From NCBI GenBank assembly GCA_001443375.1, contig LDXM01000006.1, forward strand, positions 18,133-82,132: a DNA stretch of 64,000 nt, read 5' to 3'. The stretch is from Chloroflexi bacterium CSP1-4. Its GTDB lineage: Bacteria > Chloroflexota > Limnocylindria > Limnocylindrales > CSP1-4. This document shows, in pieces, positions 5 to 48,474 of the stretch (positions are counted from its first letter, which is position 1; each line of letters begins with the position of its first letter). The notes beneath the pieces are model-generated. The model searched no databases and had not been told where the DNA came from. It saw only the letters and a program-made list of their open reading frames with translations. Made by a program: the position numbers and the translations under genes.

Positions 5-1858
5 GTGACGCTGGTGGACACGCCCGGCTACGCCGACTTCGTGGGCGAGGTCGTGGAAGGTTTTGCGGCCGTCGACGCGTCCCTGTTGGCGATGGACGCC
101 TCCGGCGGCGTCGAGGCCGGCACCGAGACGGCCATCGCCCTGGCCCGCCGCATGGGCCGGGCCGCGCTCTTCGTGCTCACGAAGTGCGACCGAGAGAACG
201 CCGACCCGAACCGTGCCCTGGACCGGTTGCGAGAGCAGTTCGGCACCAAGATCGCGCCGCTGCAGCTGGCGATCGGCGCCGGCGATGCGTTCAGCGGCTA
301 CGTCGATCTCGTCCACCGCACGGCGTATCGCTTCGAGAAGGGCGCACGTCAGGAGATGCCGATCCCGACCGAGCTGGAGCCCGAGGTCGCCCGGCGTCGC
401 GACCAACTCCTCGAGGCCGCCGCCGAGGCGGATGACGAGGTGCTGGCCAAGTACCTCGAGGGCGAGGACGTCAGCGACGCGGAGCTTGACGCGTGCCTCC
501 ACAAGGGGGTGCGCGAGAGCATCCTGGCACCGGTCGTGGTCTGCAGCGCCGAGCGGCACATCGGCATCGACGGCGTGCTCGACGCGATCATCCGCTACCT
601 GCCCTCCCCCGACGAGGAGGCGCCCGTCACCGCCCTGGACAAGGGAGGCGACGATATCCTCATGGCCGCAGACCGCGACGGCGCGCTGCTCGTGCGCGTC
701 TTCAAGACGACCGCCGACCCGTTCGTCGGCCGGCTCACCTACCTGCGCGTGCTGTCCGGCGTCCTGAAGAACAACGACCACGCCTGGAATCCTGCGCGCG
801 GGGAGGATGAGCGCATCGGCCAGCTCCTGCTCCTCCACGGCAAGGAGCAGGAGGCTGTCGGCGAGATCGGCGCCGGGGAGATCGGCGCCGTGGCCAAACT
901 CGTGTATACGAAGACCGGGGACTCGCTCTCGAGCCGCGAGCGCCCGCTGCGCCTCCCGCCCCTCGAGTTCCCCGGGCCGACGCTGCCGGTGGCCATCGAG
1001 CCGCAGACGAAGGCCGACCTCGACAAGCTGGGCACCGCGCTGGCACGGCTGCTCGAGGAGGAGCCCACGATCCGCCTCGAACGGCCCGTCGAGACCGGCG
1101 AGCAGGTGCTCTACGCGCAGGGCGAGAACCAGATCGCCGTCATCGGCGAACGCCTGAAGCGCAAGTTCGGGGCGGCCGTGGTGACCCGGCAGCCGCACAT
1201 CCCCTACCGCGAGACGATCCGAAGCCGTTCCAGGGTCGAAGGCCGCTACAAGAAACAGACCGGCGGGCACGGCATGTTCGGGCACGTCTGGCTGGAGATC
1301 GAGCCGAATAACGGCGGCGGTGTCGAGTTCGTCGAGAAGGTCGTCGGCGGCTCCGTGCCCAGGGGCTTCTTCCCCGGCGTGGAGAAGGGCGTGCGCGAGG
1401 TCGCCGCCGAGGGCGCGCTGGCCGGCTACCCGGTCATCGACTTCAAGGCCACACTCGTGGACGGCTCGTTCCACACCGTCGACTCCAACGAGCTCTCCTT
1501 CAAGATCGCCGCCTCGATGGCCACCAAGAAAGGTATCCAGGATTCGAACCCGGTGCTCCTCGAGCCGATCATGGACGTCGTGGTGCGCGTGCCCGAGCAG
1601 TACATGGGCGACGTGAACCGCGACCTCAACACGCGGCGGGGCCGCGTCCTCGGTCTCGACAGCGAGGACGGGATGCAGGTCGTGCGTGCACAGGTGCCGA
1701 TGGCCGAGCTGCCGACGTACGCGACCGAGCTGCGCTCGCTCACCCACGGCCGCGGCTCCTTCAGCGCCGAGCTGGCGACCTACGAGGAGGTGCCGGCGCA
1801 CATCGCGCAGAAGGTCATCGACCTGCACCGCAAGGAACTCGAGGCTGCCGGCCACTAG
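5..1858 (+). CDS. elongation factor G family GTPase (N-terminus truncated by window edge)
   Basis: ORF begins inside the G domain (DTPGYADF = G3 motif) and continues through EF-G domains II-V. About 85 aa including G1/G2 lie upstream of the window. Not in a visible rpsL-rpsG-fusA-tuf context, so possibly an EF-G paralogue. Confidence 0.8.
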   Translation: MTLVDTPGYADFVGEVVEGFAAVDASLLAMDASGGVEAGTETAIALARRMGRAALFVLTKCDRENADPNRALDRLREQFGTKIAPLQLAIGAGDAFSGYVDLVHRTAYRFEKGARQEMPIPTELEPEVARRRDQLLEAAAEADDEVLAKYLEGEDVSDAELDACLHKGVRESILAPVVVCSAERHIGIDGVLDAIIRYLPSPDEEAPVTALDKGGDDILMAADRDGALLVRVFKTTADPFVGRLTYLRVLSGVLKNNDHAWNPARGEDERIGQLLLLHGKEQEAVGEIGAGEIGAVAKLVYTKTGDSLSSRERPLRLPPLEFPGPTLPVAIEPQTKADLDKLGTALARLLEEEPTIRLERPVETGEQVLYAQGENQIAVIGERLKRKFGAAVVTRQPHIPYRETIRSRSRVEGRYKKQTGGHGMFGHVWLEIEPNNGGGVEFVEKVVGGSVPRGFFPGVEKGVREVAAEGALAGYPVIDFKATLVDGSFHTVDSNELSFKIAASMATKKGIQDSNPVLLEPIMDVVVRVPEQYMGDVNRDLNTRRGRVLGLDSEDGMQVVRAQVPMAELPTYATELRSLTHGRGSFSAELATYEEVPAHIAQKVIDLHRKELEAAGH

Positions 1859-1870
1859 GACCGGCGCCGC

Positions 1871-2596
1871 TCACCCCGCCGTGGCGGTCAGGGCCATCGC
1901 GAGATCCAGGCGCCCCTCGTAGAGGGCGCGTCCCAGGATCGCCCCGTCGCAGCCCGCATCCGCGAGCCGACGCAGGTCGTCGATCGTCGTCACACCGCCC
2001 GACGCGATGAGGGTGGCCTCCGGGGCGGCCGATCGGAAACCCCGGTACAGGTCGAGGTCGGGCCCGCCGAGGAGCCCGTCGCGCTCGATGGCGGTGACGG
2101 CCAGGACACGCAGGCCCGCGGCGATGAGGTCGCCCAGCACCTCGAGCGCCGGTCGGCCCGCGGCCCCCTGCCGCCAGGCCTCGCCAACGACGCTCCCGGC
2201 GCGCACGTCGAGGGCGGCGACGATGCGCTCGACACCGTGGCCGGCGACGAGCCGGGATGCGAACCCCGGATCACGCAGGAGCGCCGTGCCCAGCACGACG
2301 CGATCCGCGCCTGCCGCGAGCGCCGCCTCCACACTCGCGGCGTCCCGCAGGCCGCCGGCGACCTGACAGGGCACGCCGGCCCCCGCGATCACCCGCGCCA
2401 CCAGGTCCGCCTGGACGGGACGGCCCTCACGCGCGCCGTCGAGGTCGACGATGTGCAGGCGGGTCGCCCCCTCCCCCACCCACCGCCGGGCGATCAGCAG
2501 CGCGTCGTCGCCATACGTGGTCTCGCGCGCGAAATCGCCCGCCACGAGCCGCACGACGCGGCCTCCGCGCAGGTCGATGGCGGGGATCAGCTCCAC
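1871..2596 (-). CDS. hisA: 1-(5-phosphoribosyl)-5-[(5-phosphoribosylamino)methylideneamino]imidazole-4-carboxamide isomerase HisA/PriA
   Basis: N-terminal IPAIDLRGG and (beta/alpha)8 HisA signature along 241 aa. GTG start. Divergent from the rest of the his operon. Confidence 0.85.
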   Translation of the reverse strand: MELIPAIDLRGGRVVRLVAGDFARETTYGDDALLIARRWVGEGATRLHIVDLDGAREGRPVQADLVARVIAGAGVPCQVAGGLRDAASVEAALAAGADRVVLGTALLRDPGFASRLVAGHGVERIVAALDVRAGSVVGEAWRQGAAGRPALEVLGDLIAAGLRVLAVTAIERDGLLGGPDLDLYRGFRSAAPEATLIASGGVTTIDDLRRLADAGCDGAILGRALYEGRLDLAMALTATAG

Positions 2597-2610
2597 GGGT
2601 TGACGGGCCG

Positions 2611-2660
2611 TGCAGTCATCTGATAGCGTTGTACCATGCTACAACGATACCATGACTGCA
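2611..2660. promoter_or_regulatory. 50-bp nested palindrome in the hisA / yerC-hisG divergent intergenic region (candidate operator or RNA hairpin)
   Basis: Perfect 9-bp inverted repeat TGCAGTCAT...ATGACTGCA (2611-2619 / 2652-2660) enclosing a 26-bp near-palindrome TAGCGTTGTACCATGCTACAACGATA (2624-2649, 22/26 symmetric). TTGACG hexamer at 2599-2604 just upstream. Confidence 0.5.
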
Positions 2661-2685
2661 CGTCCTTCCGGTCGAGGCGCCCCTG

Positions 2686-3003
2686 ATGCGCGAGTTCGAG
2701 GACTGGCGGACCCCGGCCACGGGGGATCTCCTGGACGCGATCCTGGCCCTCCCCGACCGAGACGAGGCCGAACGGTTCCTGCGCGACCTGTGCACGCTGC
2801 GTGAGATCCACGACCTGGCGCAGCGCTGGCAGGTCGTCCGGCTGCTCCAGGAAGGGCTCCATTACGCCGAGATCTCGGGTCGCACCGGCGCGAGCACGGC
2901 GACGATCACCCGCATCGCCTCCTGGCTCCACCACGGGACCGGCGGCTACAGGGCCGCCCTGGCGCGGACGAAGGGCCGGGCGGCCACGGCGACCGGTCGA
3001 TGA
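2686..3003 (+). CDS. TrpR-like / YerC-YecD family DNA-binding protein
   Basis: 105-aa ORF with TrpR-family helix-turn-helix region (HYAEISGRTGASTATITRIASWL). Stop overlaps hisG start (ATGA). Confidence 0.7.
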   Translation: MREFEDWRTPATGDLLDAILALPDRDEAERFLRDLCTLREIHDLAQRWQVVRLLQEGLHYAEISGRTGASTATITRIASWLHHGTGGYRAALARTKGRAATATGR

Positions 3004-3863
3004 CACCGGATCGCCTGCGCCTGGCCGTCCCCAACAAGGGCCGGCTGCTCGAGCCGACCCTGCGCCTCCTGCGCGACGCCGGGCTCGAGTTCGAGGACCA
3101 GTCGCGCGCGCTCGTCAGTCACGCCGAGAACGTGCCGCTCGACATCCTGCACGTTCGTACCGAGGACATCGTCGAGCTGGTGGGCGACGGCGTCGCCGAC
3201 CTCGGCATCACCGGTACGAATCTGCTGGCGGAGGCCGACGTCCAGCTTCCCGTGCGCCTGGAGCTGGGCTACGGCCGTTGTCGTCTCGAAGCCGCAGTCC
3301 CGGTTGACGATGAGGCGGTCTCATTCGAGCAGCTCGCCGGCCGGCGCCTGGCCACGAGCCACCCTGCGACGACGCGACGCTTCTTCGGCGAGCGCGGCAT
3401 CGACGTCGCCATCGTGCCGCTCAGTGGTTCCGTCGAGGTGGCGCCCCGTCTGGGCCTGGCCGAGGGGATCGTCGACCTCGTCTCCACGGGCTCGACACTG
3501 ATCATGAACGGGCTGCGCTCGGTCGGCTGTCTGCTCGAGAGCCAGGCCGTGCTGGTCGGCCGGCCCTCGGCCGTGGCGCGACGCGACGCCACGGTCGACG
3601 AGGTCGTGACGGTGCTCGGCGCGGTCGTCGCCGGCCGGCGCCGGAAGTACCTGATGATGAACGCACCGCGCCGAGCGCTCAGCGCCATCGAGGCGATCCT
3701 GCCCGGGCTCGCATCGCCGAGCGTCATCCCGCTCGCCCACGACGACATGGTCGCCGTCCACGCCGTGGTCGAGGACGCGGACGTATGGCGCATGCTCCCG
3801 CCGCTGCGCGCGGCCGGGGCGTCGGGCATCCTCGTGGTGCCCATCGAGAAGCTCGTCCCGTGA
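3000..3863 (+). CDS. hisG: ATP phosphoribosyltransferase, long form
   Basis: 287 aa. Catalytic HisG domains plus C-terminal regulatory domain. First gene of a chain of overlapping his genes. Confidence 0.9.
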   Translation: MTPDRLRLAVPNKGRLLEPTLRLLRDAGLEFEDQSRALVSHAENVPLDILHVRTEDIVELVGDGVADLGITGTNLLAEADVQLPVRLELGYGRCRLEAAVPVDDEAVSFEQLAGRRLATSHPATTRRFFGERGIDVAIVPLSGSVEVAPRLGLAEGIVDLVSTGSTLIMNGLRSVGCLLESQAVLVGRPSAVARRDATVDEVVTVLGAVVAGRRRKYLMMNAPRRALSAIEAILPGLASPSVIPLAHDDMVAVHAVVEDADVWRMLPPLRAAGASGILVVPIEKLVP

Positions 3864-5200
3864 GCGTCGCCTTCGCGCGCCTCCGCCGCGTCCGCCTGGC
3901 CGACTGCTCCGTGACCGAGCGCGCCGCGCTCGTCGAGCGCAGCGCGAGCGCCTCGTCGGACGTGCGGGAGGGCGCCCGTGCGATCGTCGACGAGGTTCGG
4001 CGCGGCGGGGACGCCGCCCTGCGCGCGGCGAACGCCCGGTTCGGCGGTGGGCTTGCCCCCAGCGCCGGCGTGCCGGCACCGCTGCGCGTCTCCGCCACGG
4101 AGCTGGCCGCCGCCCGGGATGCCCTGCCCGATGTTCTGCGGGACGCCCTGCTCGCGATGGCCCGCAACATCGAGGCCTTCCACGCCGTCCAGGTGCCGCC
4201 ACGCGAGCAATGGGTCCAGGTCGCCCCGGGCATCCGGGTCGGGCGCGCCTGGCGAGCGCTCGACCGCGTCGGCGCCTACGTCCCCGGTGGCGAAGCCTCC
4301 TACCCCTCGTCACTCCTCATGAGCGCCATCCCGGCTCGCCTGGCGGGTGTCCGGGAGCTGGTCGTGGCCAGCCCCGCCGGGCGCGACGGACGCGTCTCAA
4401 CGGCGCTCCTCGGCGCCGCGGGGCTCATGGGCGTCGACGAGTTCTACGCCATGGGCGGAGCCCAGGCCATCGGCGCCCTGGCCCACGGCACGGAGAGCAT
4501 CGGGCCTGTGGACCGCATCGTCGGTCCGGGCAACGCCTGGGTGACGGCGGCCAAGCTGGAGGTCCTGGGCACAACCTCGATCGACTTCCCCGCCGGTCCG
4601 TCCGAGGTGATGGTCCTTGCCGACGGGACCGCCGAGCCGGCCCACGTCGCCGCCGACCTGCTCAGCCAGGCTGAGCACGGGCCCGATTCGGCTGCCGTCC
4701 TCGTGACCACCTCGCCCGTCCTCGCCGACGCCGTCGAGGCCGAGGTCGCCCGCCAGCTGCCGGCCCTGCCTCGCCAGGCGTTCCTGCAGGCCTCACTGGC
4801 CTCGGCCGGCCTCGTAGTGGAGGCAGCCGACCTCGACGAAGCGCTCGACTTCGTCAACGCCTACGCACCGGAGCACCTGTCGATCGTCGTGGCCCGCGAT
4901 GATCGGGCGTTCGCGGCGGTCCGGCACGCGGGCTCCGTCTTCCTCGGTGCCTGGGCGCCCGAGTCGGCCGGGGACTATGCGACGGGATCGAACCATGTCC
5001 TGCCCACCGGCCGCCTGGCGCGCGCCTACGGTGCGCTCGGCGTGGAGTCCTTCGGCAAGTGGGTCCAGGTGCAGCGGGTGACGCGCGAGGGCTTGGCCGC
5101 CATCCGGCACACGGTCGCGGTCGTGGCGGAAGCGGAGGGCCTGACCGCCCACCGCCGCGCCGTGGACATCCGCTTCGAGATGGGAGACGCCGCGCCATGA
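3860..5200 (+). CDS. hisD: histidinol dehydrogenase
   Basis: Conserved HisD core (GPGNAWVTAAK, SQAEHGPDS). Start placed at GTG 3860 overlapping the hisG stop. The ORF-track Met at 3785 lies inside hisG. Confidence 0.85.
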   Translation: MSVAFARLRRVRLADCSVTERAALVERSASASSDVREGARAIVDEVRRGGDAALRAANARFGGGLAPSAGVPAPLRVSATELAAARDALPDVLRDALLAMARNIEAFHAVQVPPREQWVQVAPGIRVGRAWRALDRVGAYVPGGEASYPSSLLMSAIPARLAGVRELVVASPAGRDGRVSTALLGAAGLMGVDEFYAMGGAQAIGALAHGTESIGPVDRIVGPGNAWVTAAKLEVLGTTSIDFPAGPSEVMVLADGTAEPAHVAADLLSQAEHGPDSAAVLVTTSPVLADAVEAEVARQLPALPRQAFLQASLASAGLVVEAADLDEALDFVNAYAPEHLSIVVARDDRAFAAVRHAGSVFLGAWAPESAGDYATGSNHVLPTGRLARAYGALGVESFGKWVQVQRVTREGLAAIRHTVAVVAEAEGLTAHRRAVDIRFEMGDAAP

Positions 5201-6297
5201 CCGATGCCGCCCGCCGCACCGGTACCACCCAGGTCTACACCTGGGAACCCTCCAACCAGGCCATCGCCGCGCGGTACGGCGTGCGCCCCGAGGATGTCGT
5301 GCGCTTCGACACGAACACCTCGCCGGCCGAGCCGGCCGGGCTGGCCGGCGCGCTCGCGGGGCCGTTCGACCCGAGCCTCAACGAGTACCCCGACAGCGAG
5401 TACGCGGAGCTCACCGCGGCGGCCGCCGCGTACACGGGCGTCGACCCGGGCGAGATCGTCGTCGGCGCCGGCGCCGACGAGGTCCTCGACATCATCGCCA
5501 AGACCTTCCTGCCGGCCGCCGGCGCGGCGATCGTGCCCATCCCGACCTACGGCATGTACGGTGTCCTGACATCGCAGCGTGCCGCCCGGGCGATCGCGGT
5601 CCCCCGGCGCGGGACAGACGGCGCCTTCGGGCTCGACCTGGATCGCCTCCTCCCCCTCCTGGCCGAGGCGCAGGTCGTGTGGCTCGCGGTGCCCAACAAC
5701 CCGACCGGCGCGGATGAGCCGGAGGCCAACCTGCTGGCGCTCCTCGACGCCGCCGCGGCGCTCGGGCCCCAGGCACCGGCGATCGTCGTGGACGAGGCCT
5801 ACCACGAGTTCACCGGACGGACGGCCATCCCGCTGCGCGACCGCTATCCGCATCTCATCGTCGTGCGCACGCTCTCCAAGGCCTTCGCCCTGCCCGGCAT
5901 CCGCATCGGCTATGCCGTGGCCGCCCGCGCGACGATCGCGCGCCTCGAACGCGTCCGGCCGCCGGGCAGCGTCTCCACGGTCTCGGCGACCATCGGCGCG
6001 GCGGCGCTGCGAGCGCCGGCGACCGCCGTCGAGAATGTGCGGCGGCTGGTCGAGGAACGGAGCCGCTTCGCCGCCGCGCTCACCGCCGCCGGGTGGACGC
6101 CGCATCCCTCGGTCACGAACTTCCTCCTCGTGCGCATCGGCAGCCACGAGCAGGCCGAGGAAGCCGCCGAGCGGCTGCTGCACCGCGGCCTGGTGCCGCG
6201 CACGTTCGGGCCGGCCAACCCGCTGCGCGGCCACCTGCGCCTGACGGTGCGCTCCGCGGCCGAAAACGCGCGGCTCGTCGAGGCCATCGGCGCATGA
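5197..6297 (+). CDS. hisC: histidinol-phosphate aminotransferase
   Basis: Class II aminotransferase with the PLP lysine in TLSKAFALPGIRIGY. ATG 5197 overlaps the hisD stop (ATGA). Confidence 0.85.
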   Translation: MTDAARRTGTTQVYTWEPSNQAIAARYGVRPEDVVRFDTNTSPAEPAGLAGALAGPFDPSLNEYPDSEYAELTAAAAAYTGVDPGEIVVGAGADEVLDIIAKTFLPAAGAAIVPIPTYGMYGVLTSQRAARAIAVPRRGTDGAFGLDLDRLLPLLAEAQVVWLAVPNNPTGADEPEANLLALLDAAAALGPQAPAIVVDEAYHEFTGRTAIPLRDRYPHLIVVRTLSKAFALPGIRIGYAVAARATIARLERVRPPGSVSTVSATIGAAALRAPATAVENVRRLVEERSRFAAALTAAGWTPHPSVTNFLLVRIGSHEQAEEAAERLLHRGLVPRTFGPANPLRGHLRLTVRSAAENARLVEAIGA

Positions 6298-6914
6298 GCG
6301 GCACGATCGGTCGAGCGCGCACGGCCGAGGTCCGCCGCACCACGCGGGAGACCGACGTGACCGTGCGCCTCGACCTCGACGGCATCGGCACGGCCGACGT
6401 GCGCACCGGCGTGGGCCTCTACGACCACCTGTGGACCTCGTTCGCCCACCACGCCCTGGTGGACCTCGCCGTGGCCGCGACCGGCGACCTCGAGGTGGAC
6501 GAGCACCACACGGTCGAGGACGTCGCCCTCGTCGTGGGCAGTGCCCTCTCGCAGGCGCTCGGCGACCGCTCCGGTATCCGCCGCTTCGGCGACGCGTCCG
6601 TGCCCATGGACGAGGCGTTCGCGAGCGCCGTCGTGGACTGCTCCGGGCGGCCGTACGCCGTGCTCGACCTGGCCTTCCGCGGCGAGCGGATCGGCGCCCT
6701 CTCGACGCAGCTCATCGAGCACGCCCTCGAGGCGTTCGCGCGCTCGGCCGGCCTGACGCTCCACCTCCGCGCCGCCGGCCGCAACGACCACCACGTCGCC
6801 GAGGCCGCCTTCAAGGCGCTCGCGCTCGCCGTGCGCGAGGCCACCGAGTCCGATCCGCGGCGCAGCGGCATCGCCTCCACGAAGGGGACCCTCGACCCGG
6901 GGTCCGCCACGTGA
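6294..6914 (+). CDS. hisB: imidazoleglycerol-phosphate dehydratase
   Basis: 206 aa with the duplicated HisB motifs (RTTRETDV, DxHH, HHxxE). ATG 6294 overlaps the hisC stop. Confidence 0.9.
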   Translation: MSGTIGRARTAEVRRTTRETDVTVRLDLDGIGTADVRTGVGLYDHLWTSFAHHALVDLAVAATGDLEVDEHHTVEDVALVVGSALSQALGDRSGIRRFGDASVPMDEAFASAVVDCSGRPYAVLDLAFRGERIGALSTQLIEHALEAFARSAGLTLHLRAAGRNDHHVAEAAFKALALAVREATESDPRRSGIASTKGTLDPGSAT

Positions 6915-7528
6915 CCCCGGTGCGCGCGGCGGTCGTCGATCACGGCGCCGGCAACCTCGTCAGCGTGCGCGCCGCGCTCGAGGCGGCCGGAGCCGTCGTC
7001 ACCATCGCCAGCCGGCCCTCCGGCCTGGCCGGCGTGTCGCTCATCGTGGTCCCGGGCGTCGGCGCCAGCCGGCCGGCCATGGCGCGGCTGCGCCGGAGCG
7101 GGCTCGACGACGCGATCCGCGCGTCGCTCGACGACGGCGCCTGGTACCTCGGCATCTGCCTCGGCCTGCAACTCCTCTTCGAGCGCTCCGAGGAGGACGG
7201 TGCGGAACTGCTCGGCCTGCTCGGCGGCACGGTGCGCCCCATCGTCGGCGCGCCGCGGCTGCCACACATCGGCTGGAACGCCATCGAGCGTCGCCGCCGC
7301 CACTCCCTCCTCGAGGGCATCCCCGATGGAGCCGCCGCCTACTTCGTCCACTCCTTCGTGGGCGTCCCCGACGACCCGTCGGTGGTCCTCGCCCAGACCG
7401 AGCACGGGGGGCGCTTCCCGAGCGTCGTCGCGTCGGGCCGGCTGCTCGGCACGCAGTTCCACCCGGAGCGTTCCGGGAGCCGCGGGCTGCGCCTGCTCGC
7501 CAACGCCGTGGCCCTCGCGGGCGCCTGA
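6911..7528 (+). CDS. hisH: imidazole glycerol phosphate synthase, glutamine amidotransferase subunit
   Basis: Class I GATase with the catalytic Cys in LGICLGLQLL and the C-terminal HPE triad. GTG 6911 overlaps the hisB stop. Confidence 0.85.
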   Translation: MTPVRAAVVDHGAGNLVSVRAALEAAGAVVTIASRPSGLAGVSLIVVPGVGASRPAMARLRRSGLDDAIRASLDDGAWYLGICLGLQLLFERSEEDGAELLGLLGGTVRPIVGAPRLPHIGWNAIERRRRHSLLEGIPDGAAAYFVHSFVGVPDDPSVVLAQTEHGGRFPSVVASGRLLGTQFHPERSGSRGLRLLANAVALAGA

Positions 7529-7531
7529 GCG

Positions 7532-8308
7532 ATGCTGCTCCGTCGCGTCATCCCCTGCCTCGACGTGGCCGGCGGCCGCGTCGTGAAGGGCACGCGCTTC
7601 GTGGACTTGCGGGATGCGGGGGATCCGGCCGAGCTGGCGGCCCGCTATGCTGCGGCCGGTGCCGACGAGATCGTCCTCCTCGACATCACCGCCGCGCCGG
7701 AGGGCCGCGCGACGCTGCTGGAGCTGGTCGAGCGGACCGCGCGGCGGCTGTTCGTGCCCCTCACCGTGGGCGGCGGCGTGCGCTCCACGGCGGGCATGCG
7801 AGCGGTGCTCCGCGCCGGCGCCGACAAAGTGGCCGTGAACACGGCCGCCATCGCCGACCCGGGACTCATCCGTCGCTGCGCGCGCGTCTTCGGGCGGCAG
7901 TGCGTCGTCGTCGCCGTTGACGTGCGGGCCGTGTCGGCGGACGGCGGCTGGGAGGTGCTTGCCCGCGGCGGCCGGGACGCGACCGGCCTGGATGCCGTGG
8001 CCTGGGTTCGCCGCGCCGCCGGGCTGGGGGCCGGTGAGATCCTCCTCACGTCGATCGACCGCGACGGCACGCGCTCGGGGTTCGACCTGGACCTGCTGCG
8101 CGCCGTGACGGCGGTCGTGGATGTGCCGCTCATCGCGTCGGGCGGTGCGGGCACGCCCGCCGACATGGTGGCGGCCATCGTCGAGGGCGGCGCCGACGCC
8201 GTCCTCGCCGCGTCGGTCTTCCATCGCGGCATCCACTCGATCGCCTCGGTCAAGGCCGCCCTGGCGGCCGCGGGCGTGCCGGTGCGGCCCGTGGAGGAGG
8301 CCGCCTGA
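7532..8308 (+). CDS. hisF: imidazole glycerol phosphate synthase, cyclase subunit
   Basis: HisF (beta/alpha)8 barrel: [19 protein letters not shown]. Confidence 0.9.
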
Positions 8309-8985
8309 TGGCCGCCGCCCGAGTCGTCCCCCGCTGGGGCGCGGATGGGCTCGTCCCGGGCATCGTGCAGGACGCCGCCGATGGTCGGGTGCTGATGCTC
8401 GGCTGGCTCGACGCGGAGGCTCTCGCCGCGACGCTGGACAGCGGCCAGGTCCACTTCCACTCCCGCTCCCGCGACCGGCTGTGGCGGAAGGGCGAGGAGA
8501 GCGGCAACGTTCTGCGGCTCGTCGGGCTCGCCCTCGACTGCGACGGCGACGCGCTCCTGCTGACGGTGGAGCCGGCCGGCCCCGCCTGCCACACGGGCGA
8601 TCGCTCCTGCTTCGATGCCGGGCTCGCCCACGGGCGCACGGCGTTCGCCGCCGGGACGCCGCAGGGCTTCGGCTGGCTCGAGACCCTCTGGGCGACCATC
8701 GGCGATCGAGCCGAGCGGATGCCCCCGGACTCCTACACGACGAGCCTGCTGCGCGGCGGCGTGGACGCCGTGGCGCGCAAGGTCGCCGAGGAGGCGGTCG
8801 AGGTCGTCATCGCGGCCAAGGACGACGCTCATGCGGAGGCGGCCGATGCAGATCGCCCCTGGGCCAGTGCAGCGCTGGCCGGCGAGGTTGCCGACCTGCT
8901 GTACCACGCGCTGGTGCTGTGCGCCCAGCGGGGCCTCTCCCCGAGCGCAGTGCTCAACGTCCTCCGCGGCCGCCACGCGGCCTGA
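8308..8985 (+). CDS. hisIE: bifunctional phosphoribosyl-AMP cyclohydrolase / phosphoribosyl-ATP pyrophosphatase
   Basis: N-terminal HisI signature ([17 protein letters not shown]) fused to a C-terminal HisE MazG-like domain. ATGA overlap with hisF. Confidence 0.85.
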
Positions 8986-23646: not shown

Positions 23647-23915
23647 CGTCCGACCTCCAGGAATCGAAACAGCCTCTCGTCCATCGACAGGACGAGAGGC
23701 TGTGCCTCCCGCGGTCCCACCCGCCTTCGCCGCCGGACGCGCCGGCGACGCTCTCGTGGCCGCGCTAACGGGCGGCGCCCGGGCCGGTTCACCGGCCGCT
23801 CACGGGTGGTGGCGACGTCCCGCCGCTCCGTCGGGGCTTCCAGCCTCGGCCCCGACTCTCTGGTGGATCGGCTCACTGCTGATCGTCGCGTCCCGCTCGG
23901 CGCGTTGCTTCGCGA
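23647..23915 (-). promoter_or_regulatory. T-box riboswitch leader of thrS
   Basis: Minus-strand leader has the T-box sequence GGGUGGGACCGCG (plus 23710-23722). Next comes a terminator hairpin CAGCCUCUCGUCC-N8-GGACGAGAGGCUG (plus 23670-23702) followed by UUUCGAUU, then GGAGG and the thrS AUG. An AGAGAG box and ACC triplets lie upstream. Confidence 0.6.
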
Positions 23916-47988: not shown

Positions 47989-48474
47989 GTGGAGGATCAA
48001 GAGTCGGCCGGCGCCCTGTCAACGCTCACCGCTCTCGTGGGCACCTGGCGCGGCAAGGGCACGGCCAGGCTTCCGTCGATGGGGGCGGTGGACTTCGACG
48101 AAGTGGTCCGCTTCTCGCGACGGAGCCCGAACTCGCTCGACTCCTGGCAGCGGGCCGTAGCCGCGGGCGACGGAACGATGCTCCACAGCGAGTCGGGGAT
48201 CTGGCGCGTGACCTCCACCGGTTCGCTGGAGGTCACGGTCGCCCTGCCCGGTGCGACCGAGGTGTCCGAAGGGAGCGTTGACGGGGCGACGATCCGGCTC
48301 GAGTCGACGGCGATCGGCCTGGCCGCCACCGGTGCCAAGCTCCGGCAGGCGACTCGGCGCTACGAGCTCCGCGGCGACTCGCTCGGCTACGACATCTCGA
48401 TCGCGACAGCGGAGCTCGCGCTTACCGCCCATATCAGCGCTGAGCTGCATCGGTCGGAGAGCCCCAGCCGCTGA
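47989..48474 (+). CDS. hypothetical protein, possibly nitrobindin-like beta-barrel (DUF1794)
   Basis: LVGTWRGKGT N-terminal motif typical of nitrobindin/THAP4-C-terminal-like barrels. GTG start. Weak assignment. Confidence 0.4.
   Translation: MEDQESAGALSTLTALVGTWRGKGTARLPSMGAVDFDEVVRFSRRSPNSLDSWQRAVAAGDGTMLHSESGIWRVTSTGSLEVTVALPGATEVSEGSVDGATIRLESTAIGLAATGAKLRQATRRYELRGDSLGYDISIATAELALTAHISAELHRSESPSR

Follow-up and report, generated by a model that had tools for sequence, protein, structure and literature searches.

A predicted HisR operator between hisA and the hisR-led histidine operon of a Chloroflexota genome

The YerC protein of Bacillus subtilis and its orthologues belong to the TrpR family and were named HisR by Ashniev et al. 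2022 (BMC Genomics, PMC9413887). HisR was predicted to bind 20-bp palindromes located upstream of histidine biosynthesis genes, histidine transport genes and hisR itself (PMC9413887). Purified Ruminococcus gnavus HisR bound its site only in the presence of histidine, as seen by fluorescence polarisation, and the Trp-contacting residues are replaced in HisR (PMC9413887). The same survey reported hisR as the first gene of hisR-hisGD... operons and described HisR paralogues having other functions, such as tyrosine/tyramine regulation in Enterococcus (PMC9413887). Hence, regulation of histidine biosynthesis by a YerC-type protein, which an earlier sequence-only reading of the present locus had implied to be novel, has been in print since 2022 (PMC9413887).

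The closest described arrangement is the HisR regulon of Xanthomonadales, Legionellales and Caulobacterales/Maricaulales, a hisR-hisGDC... operon having a single upstream site, TGTAnTArnnnnyTnTTACA (PMC9413887). The supplementary table of the survey gives tgtattagcacgctaataca for Pseudoxanthomonas, tgtgttagcgcgctaacacg for Maricaulis and tgttttatcacgctaacacg for Oceanicaulis (PMC9413887). Chloroflexota do not appear in that survey or in its seven supplementary files (PMC9413887), and our literature search for HisR in Chloroflexi returned nothing beyond mentions in reference lists. The HisR system is therefore a known one, and what is new here is Chloroflexota as an added phylum and a hisA gene that lies on the other side of the operator.

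The hisR-his operon and divergent hisA

The window (the whole 64-kb stretch of DNA that was analysed, G+C content 72.7%) contains these histidine genes:

1871-2596, minus strand: hisA (ProFAR isomerase), Pfam His_biosynth 2.8e-62, a single gene divergent from hisR
2686-3003, plus strand: hisR, a 105-aa YerC/YecD-type TrpR-family repressor with PF01371 and TIGR02531 matches
3000-3863, plus strand: hisG, long form with C-terminal domain, Pfam HisG 3.6e-43 and HisG_C 3.4e-25
3860-5200, plus strand: hisD, Histidinol_dh 4.5e-151, the assumed GTG start at 3860 giving a GTGA overlap with hisG
5197-6297, plus strand: hisC, Aminotran_1_2 1.4e-49, ATGA overlap with hisD
6294-6914, plus strand: hisB (imidazoleglycerol-phosphate dehydratase), NCBIfam HisB 252 bits, ATGA overlap
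6911-7528, plus strand: hisH, TIGR01855 5.4e-56, GTGA overlap
7532-8308, plus strand: hisF, His_biosynth 1.2e-76
8308-8985, plus strand: hisIE, fused, the final operon gene, PRA-CH 5.4e-31 and PRA-PH 1.5e-17

The best NCBIfam match of hisA was TIGR00007 HisA at 205.9 bits, which is below the 228.95 cutoff of that model. An EF-G-family GTPase gene (5-1858, plus strand) is convergent to hisA, and this neighbour recurs in one relative (L061:629-2716). The hisR stop codon TGA (3001-3003) overlaps the hisG ATG (3000-3002) to give ATGA, so the sequence-only reading was right to place a YerC/YecD-type gene coupled to hisG at the head of the hisGDCBHF(IE) chain. At five of the operon junctions the genes overlap by 4 nt, or can be taken to do so (ATGA at 3000, 5197 and 6294; GTGA at 6911 and, if that start is used, at 3860) and there is one further overlap of 1 nt at 8308. 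As nearly all of the junctions are start/stop overlaps, very tight translational coupling is indicated. The gene call for hisD in a relative begins 12 nt past hisG instead of overlapping it.

The 105-aa protein matched Pfam Trp_repressor PF01371 (E 7e-25, 87.4 bits, cutoff 27) and NCBIfam TIGR02531 yecD_yerC, the YerC/YecD family of TrpR-related proteins (83.8 bits, cutoff 42.2). TrpR proper, the tryptophan repressor, was rejected as its identity: the TrpR equivalog TIGR01321 gave 25.7 bits, below the cutoff of 67.25, and the neighbours are his genes only. PDB entries 3G1C, 3KOR and 3FRW matched at E 1.5e-18 to 5.8e-18, the value for 3G1C, which the survey treats as Eubacterium eligens HisR (PMC9413887), being 1.5e-18. 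The recognition-helix motif TGASTATI(T/S)R is common to the 105-aa protein and these three structures, and its helix-turn-helix (HTH) residues Y60, G68, S70-T73, T75 and R76 are invariant across 33 relatives. The match to the YerC/YecD model, the HisR similarity with its HTH motif, the association with his genes and a 20-bp TA-N6-TA palindrome (below) are all found at this locus. By its sequence the protein is a HisR orthologue of the B. subtilis YerC type.

Firmicutes HisR proteins (B. subtilis YerC, R. gnavus HisR and the three PDB entries) share with it the family (E about 1e-18), the HTH motif, a 20-bp palindrome having TA at positions 6-7 and 14-15 and histidine biosynthesis as the target (PMC9413887). 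The Firmicutes systems differ in their consensus, cacTTTAnnnnnnTAAAgtg, in that hisR is usually unlinked to his genes and in regulons that often include transporters (hisXYZ, yuiF) (PMC9413887). No transporter-linked HisR site of the hisXYZ or yuiF kind was found in the 64-kb window.

A protein search with HisR returned 3601 homologues, the named best ones of which came from Chloroflexota or 'Candidatus Limnocylindrales' MAGs; the nearest relatives of the host, an uncultured bacterium, are MAGs labelled Limnocylindrales. When species-representative genomes were scanned for HisR, the best 80 loci (HisR identity 66-78%) were all from Chloroflexota, and about 75 of these 80 had the layout in which hisA diverges from hisR-hisG. 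This extends to Chloroflexota, namely to Limnocylindria-like soil and freshwater MAGs, the HisR regulon, an amino-acid repressor system that was defined only recently and has hardly been tested. In the window hisA is absent from its usual place between hisH and hisF (7528-7532) and sits divergently upstream of hisR, a relocation kept in about 75 of the 80 loci.

A minority of the Chloroflexota genomes have hisR without a hisG or hisA neighbour (L019 and L061, and likely L016 and L033). In L019:2974-4435 and L061:2992-4439 hisR is followed by a class I/II aminotransferase gene (hisC-like), beyond which lies a convergent tyrosyl-tRNA synthetase gene. Such pairing of hisR with an aminotransferase gene rather than with hisG resembles the hisC-hisR operons of Synergistetes (PMC9413887), but in L019 and L061 the gene order is reversed, hisR being first, and this is not the arrangement of the window.

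The putative operator array and predicted promoters

The hisA-hisR intergenic spacer is 89 bp and contains both of the symmetries described in the sequence-only reading, an outer inverted repeat and an inner 26-bp near-palindrome. The inner element, TAGCGTTGTACCATGCTACAACGATA at 2624-2649, has 11 of 13 pairs complementary and lies within a larger conserved block:

2619-2654, no strand: HisR operator array, a conserved 36-bp palindromic block of four 8-bp units with its dyad at 2636/2637
2627-2646, no strand: core HisR site of 20 bp, CGTTGTACCATGCTACAACG, 9 of 10 pairs complementary

The four units in the window are GATAGCGT, TGTACCAT, GCTACAAC and GATACCAT, and follow the pattern nnTAGCry. In most hisA-hisR spacers the best or runner-up 20-bp palindrome belongs to the family CGTnnTAGCAyGCTAnnACG. 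Alignment of 74 other loci on the core gave C.TGcTAGCGT.tTAGCAyGCTAcTACGcTAgCATg as the consensus of the 36-bp block, and no information was detectable in that alignment outside the block. TA dinucleotides recur every 8 bp, those at the three inner positions being 93-100% conserved and that at the leftmost 78-85% conserved in the 74 loci. The core site of the window departs from the lineage consensus twice (C for G at 2634 and A for T at 2643). The distance from the array to the hisA start has a tight distribution (median 31 nt), and that to the hisR start is more variable (20-207 nt).

Given a Chloroflexota operator matrix built from other genomes, the window sequence being left out, the window site scored 51.3 bits and the next non-overlapping position in the 64 kb scored -8.3. 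Thus, the window holds one site, which is far beyond chance, and no further HisR sites, for example at transporters or other his genes, were found elsewhere in the 64-kb window. Such an information-rich motif, conserved in about 75 genomes, could be used to annotate histidine regulation in uncultured Chloroflexota.

The uniqueness of the site bears on the possibility that the 105-aa protein belongs to the TrpR family but has another ligand (tryptophan, tyrosine or an intermediate of the pathway such as histidinol), or is a HisR paralogue having a different regulon. Some HisR2 paralogues are linked to a tyrosine decarboxylase gene or to hut genes, and the ligand has been tested for only one HisR (PMC9413887). 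However, the 64 kb contain a single site, in the hisA-hisR spacer, the translation of hisR is coupled to that of hisG, the protein fails the TrpR equivalog model and synteny with his genes holds across about 75 genomes, which make a different ligand or regulon very unlikely.

Compared with itself, the array is 56% identical when shifted by 8 and 50% identical when shifted by 16, versus 10-36% for other shifts, and its recognition units lie in 8-bp register as in a TrpR-like tandem array. TrpR dimers reportedly can bind in tandem, an observation attributed to Lawson and Carey in 1993. E. coli TrpR, which acts on the trp, aroH and trpR operators, is also alike in fold family, in being an autoregulated amino-acid repressor and in having operator units every 8 bp that overlap the -10 box and start point. 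It differs in its operator unit, which is ACTAGT versus TAGCry here, and in its target, which here is the histidine pathway. The TrpR GNACT half-sites are likewise spaced 8 bp (PMC9413887).

A sigma-70 and terminator consensus scan of 2400-2900 gave no matches at the stringency used. From the cross-genome alignment of 75 loci we inferred the following elements:

2600-2605, plus strand: predicted -35 box TTGACG of the hisR-his operon, 18 nt upstream of TAGCGT
2624-2629, plus strand: predicted -10 box TAGCGT, identical with the first operator unit and preceded by TG at 2621-2622
2644-2652, minus strand: extended -10-like sequence TGGTATCGT, a weakly supported candidate hisA promoter element that mirrors the plus-strand -10

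A match of at least 5 of 6 positions to TTGACA was present at the -35 spacing in 20 of the 75 aligned loci versus 0-4 at control offsets. The predicted -10 position read TAnnnT in 48 of 75 loci and TAGCGT in 36 of 75. At the mirror position on the minus strand TAnnnT was found in 64 of 75 loci, and conservation is 89% for the C and 86% for the A that give the TG of that strand. No -35 box was found on the hisA side in any of the 75 loci, where only the extended -10-like TGnTAnCGT remains. The promoter assignments are tentative because a clear -35 box is present in only 20 of the 75 loci and in none on the hisA side. Both the predicted hisR -10 box and the predicted start point, the latter at about 2636 on the dyad, fall inside the 36-bp block. 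As the array fills the middle of the 89-bp spacer, the promoter of either gene must overlap the array or sit upstream of it. In several loci the hisA start codon overlaps the -35 box of the hisR promoter.

The outer inverted repeat and the RNA hairpin reading

The outer inverted repeat, TGCAGTCAT/ATGACTGCA, grows to 11 perfect bp (2609-2619/2652-2662) and is 13/14 complementary over the following arms:

2606-2619, no strand: left arm GGCCGTGCAGTCAT, within the promoter spacer
2652-2665, no strand: right arm ATGACTGCACGTCC, its first 3 nt belonging to the last operator unit

These three right-arm nucleotides are part of the conserved CATG of operator unit 4. The outer axis lies at 2635.5 and the inner axis at 2636.5, a 1-bp offset that arises from spacers of 4 nt versus 2 nt, so the symmetries do not share a centre.

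The arms were compared in five contigs that cover the spacer, from strains having 92-94% identical HisR; the P0001 contig (L088) does not extend far enough to cover the left operator half. In these five close relatives the left arm is nearly unchanged, and changes in the right arm are uncompensated, so that only 5-7 of 11 positions can still pair; such divergence rules out the outer repeat as a conserved stem. At the arm positions the alignment of the 74 more distant loci is uninformative. The window has five perfect 11-bp inverted repeats whose loop is at most 40 nt, versus 3.7 +/- 2.0 in Markov-1 simulations. The four others lie at 824-861, 3615-3675, 23669-23703 and 48207-48237, a number that matches chance. 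Only the inner element exceeds chance; the outer repeat does not. Hence, the yerC-hisG linkage and the 36-bp inner block are present in about 75 genomes but the outer repeat is not, and the 50-bp nested palindrome cannot be upheld as a functional unit, its outer 9-11-bp arms being neither conserved nor compensated in close relatives.

The arms might nevertheless be functional DNA in this strain, as further HisR half-sites placed two turns of the helix away from the dyad, as a site for a second regulator or as a cruciform-forming sequence, which would make the operator of the window strain larger than in its relatives. Eleven perfect bp flank the operator almost symmetrically, a repeat of this kind is expected only about 0.005 times in a given 90-bp stretch, and GACT/AGTC within the arms recalls the GNACT half-site of TrpR (PMC9413887). 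However, the axis is 1 bp off the operator dyad, the arms are not in the 8-bp register and the right arm begins with 3 nt that belong to the conserved CATG of operator unit 4. Taken with the loss of complementarity to 5-7 of 11 positions in the nearest relatives, the lack of information at arm positions in 74 loci and the window-wide repeat count at chance, these points make a function for the arms improbable. The outer repeat is probably a strain-specific coincidence and not part of the HisR system.

The sequence-only reading had offered an RNA hairpin in the leader as an alternative to a protein site. Across 75 loci, half-to-half Watson-Crick complementarity equalled the independent-column expectation at all 18 symmetric pairs. 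One pair (-6/25) was nominally below 5% (62 of 2000 permutations) and showed no compensatory changes, which is about chance for 18 tests. At one half-site position G is changed to C in 19 loci, and the change is never compensated in the other half. This lack of covariation between the halves fits half-sites that are each selected for protein contact rather than for base pairing.

The hairpin reading takes the 60-bp nested palindrome (2606-2665) as an attenuator or as a stability or translational control element in the hisR or hisA leader. If fully transcribed, the 60-nt segment would fold at -27.0 kcal/mol on the plus strand (z -4.75) and at -31.9 kcal/mol on the minus strand (z -6.57). However, the predicted plus-strand start at the dyad means that the left arm would not be transcribed, and the predicted leaders fold no better than shuffled sequences (z +2.05 and +0.09). 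In the strains whose HisR is 92-94% identical, the homologous segments reach only -8 to -23 kcal/mol and their outer arms have diverged without compensation, and complementarity across the 75 loci is that of independent columns. An Rfam scan of the whole window at gathering thresholds gave two tRNAs only, with neither a T-box nor a His leader in the his leader, and the 2400-2900 scan found no terminator-like site. Neither a curated leader-RNA family nor a covarying conserved stem was therefore found. The comparative data largely refute the hairpin, which we regard as extremely improbable given the absence of covariation and of an Rfam family and a predicted start in the middle of the palindrome.

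Predicted HisR repression and comparison with proteobacterial loci

We return to the inner array as a protein-binding site. Judged from the family, gene order and site conservation, the locus is very probably a HisR regulon in which histidine-charged HisR would repress hisR-hisGDCBHF(IE) and hisA through the array at 2619-2654. HisR carrying histidine would bind this palindromic array as a dimer, or perhaps, in the manner of TrpR, as two or three dimers set in 8-bp register, and the bound protein would occlude RNA polymerase at the hisR-his promoter. When histidine is plentiful, both divergent transcription units would be turned off, including hisR itself (autoregulation). As the array is predicted to hold the -10 box and start of the hisR-his promoter and separates hisA from any possible hisA promoter, its occupancy would shut both units. 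A role for histidine as the corepressor is suggested by homology to R. gnavus HisR, a Firmicutes homologue of about 40% identity. The proposal in the sequence-only reading that the TrpR-like protein autoregulates the his operon and divergent hisA through the palindrome thus agrees with published HisR biology (PMC9413887), with the conservation in about 75 genomes and with the predicted promoter position. No new mechanism is revealed, and the striking outer palindrome is not a conserved feature; the locus is a compact natural example of one predicted operator for two divergent his transcription units.

A more elaborate version is conceivable but less likely than not. The Chloroflexota operator would be a 36-bp four-unit array that is bound cooperatively by two or three HisR dimers and whose outer units are the -10 boxes of two facing divergent promoters, with the starts meeting at the dyad. 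If so, one array would switch hisR-hisGDCBHF(IE) and the relocated hisA together.

The Chloroflexota core is closest to the proteobacterial HisR sites, the 20-bp cores tgtattagcacgctaataca and tgtgttagcgcgctaacacg being nearly CGTnnTAGCAyGCTAnnACG (PMC9413887). When scored with the Chloroflexota 20-bp core matrix, 28 published sites from Proteobacteria and Elusimicrobia had a median score of 11.6 bits, the highest being 24.3 bits, and Actinobacteria-type HisR sites had a median of 0.5 bits (sites from PMC9413887). The 99.9th percentile of random 20-mers was -7.2 bits. The outermost core bases differ, being TG...CA in the proteobacterial sites (PMC9413887) and CG...CG in Chloroflexota. A further difference is that hisA is here excised from the operon and placed divergently; with hisA divergent beside the operator, one operator would serve two transcription units. 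The proteobacterial-type HisR proteins of the metagenome loci inspected are only 34-54% identical to that of the window.

A metagenome scan using the xanthomonad site pattern gave 120 loci (L092-L211), with a HisR homologue beside the site in 101 of them. In the 97 loci with complete flanks the palindrome extends to tGtgcTAA-TGTA...TACA-TTgataCa, about 36 bp, conserved cTAA and TTAg units flanking the published 20-bp site. TTGAC was present as a -35 box at 18-nt spacing in 28 of these 97 loci and in 37 over spacings of 16-19 nt; the control offsets were noisy (0-31), so this count is suggestive only. It suggests that the module having a -35 box 18 nt upstream of an operator unit doubling as the -10 occurs in a sizeable minority of proteobacterial loci also, and that overlap of promoter and operator may be common to the proteobacterial type too. 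As the proteobacterial type has the extended site and may also have the promoter overlap, neither is peculiar to Chloroflexota. Overlap of operator and -10 box in proteobacterial loci is a point absent from the available text of the survey (PMC9413887).

Two variants of the leader were seen among the Chloroflexota relatives. The HisR-type site of L033 and L061 stops 2 nt short of the estimated start of hisR, and thus hisR may be leaderless there or its start mis-set. L042, which is without a divergent hisA, has a perfect tandem run of four copies, (GGCGCGGA) x4, in the hisR leader about 20-60 nt downstream of the HisR site.
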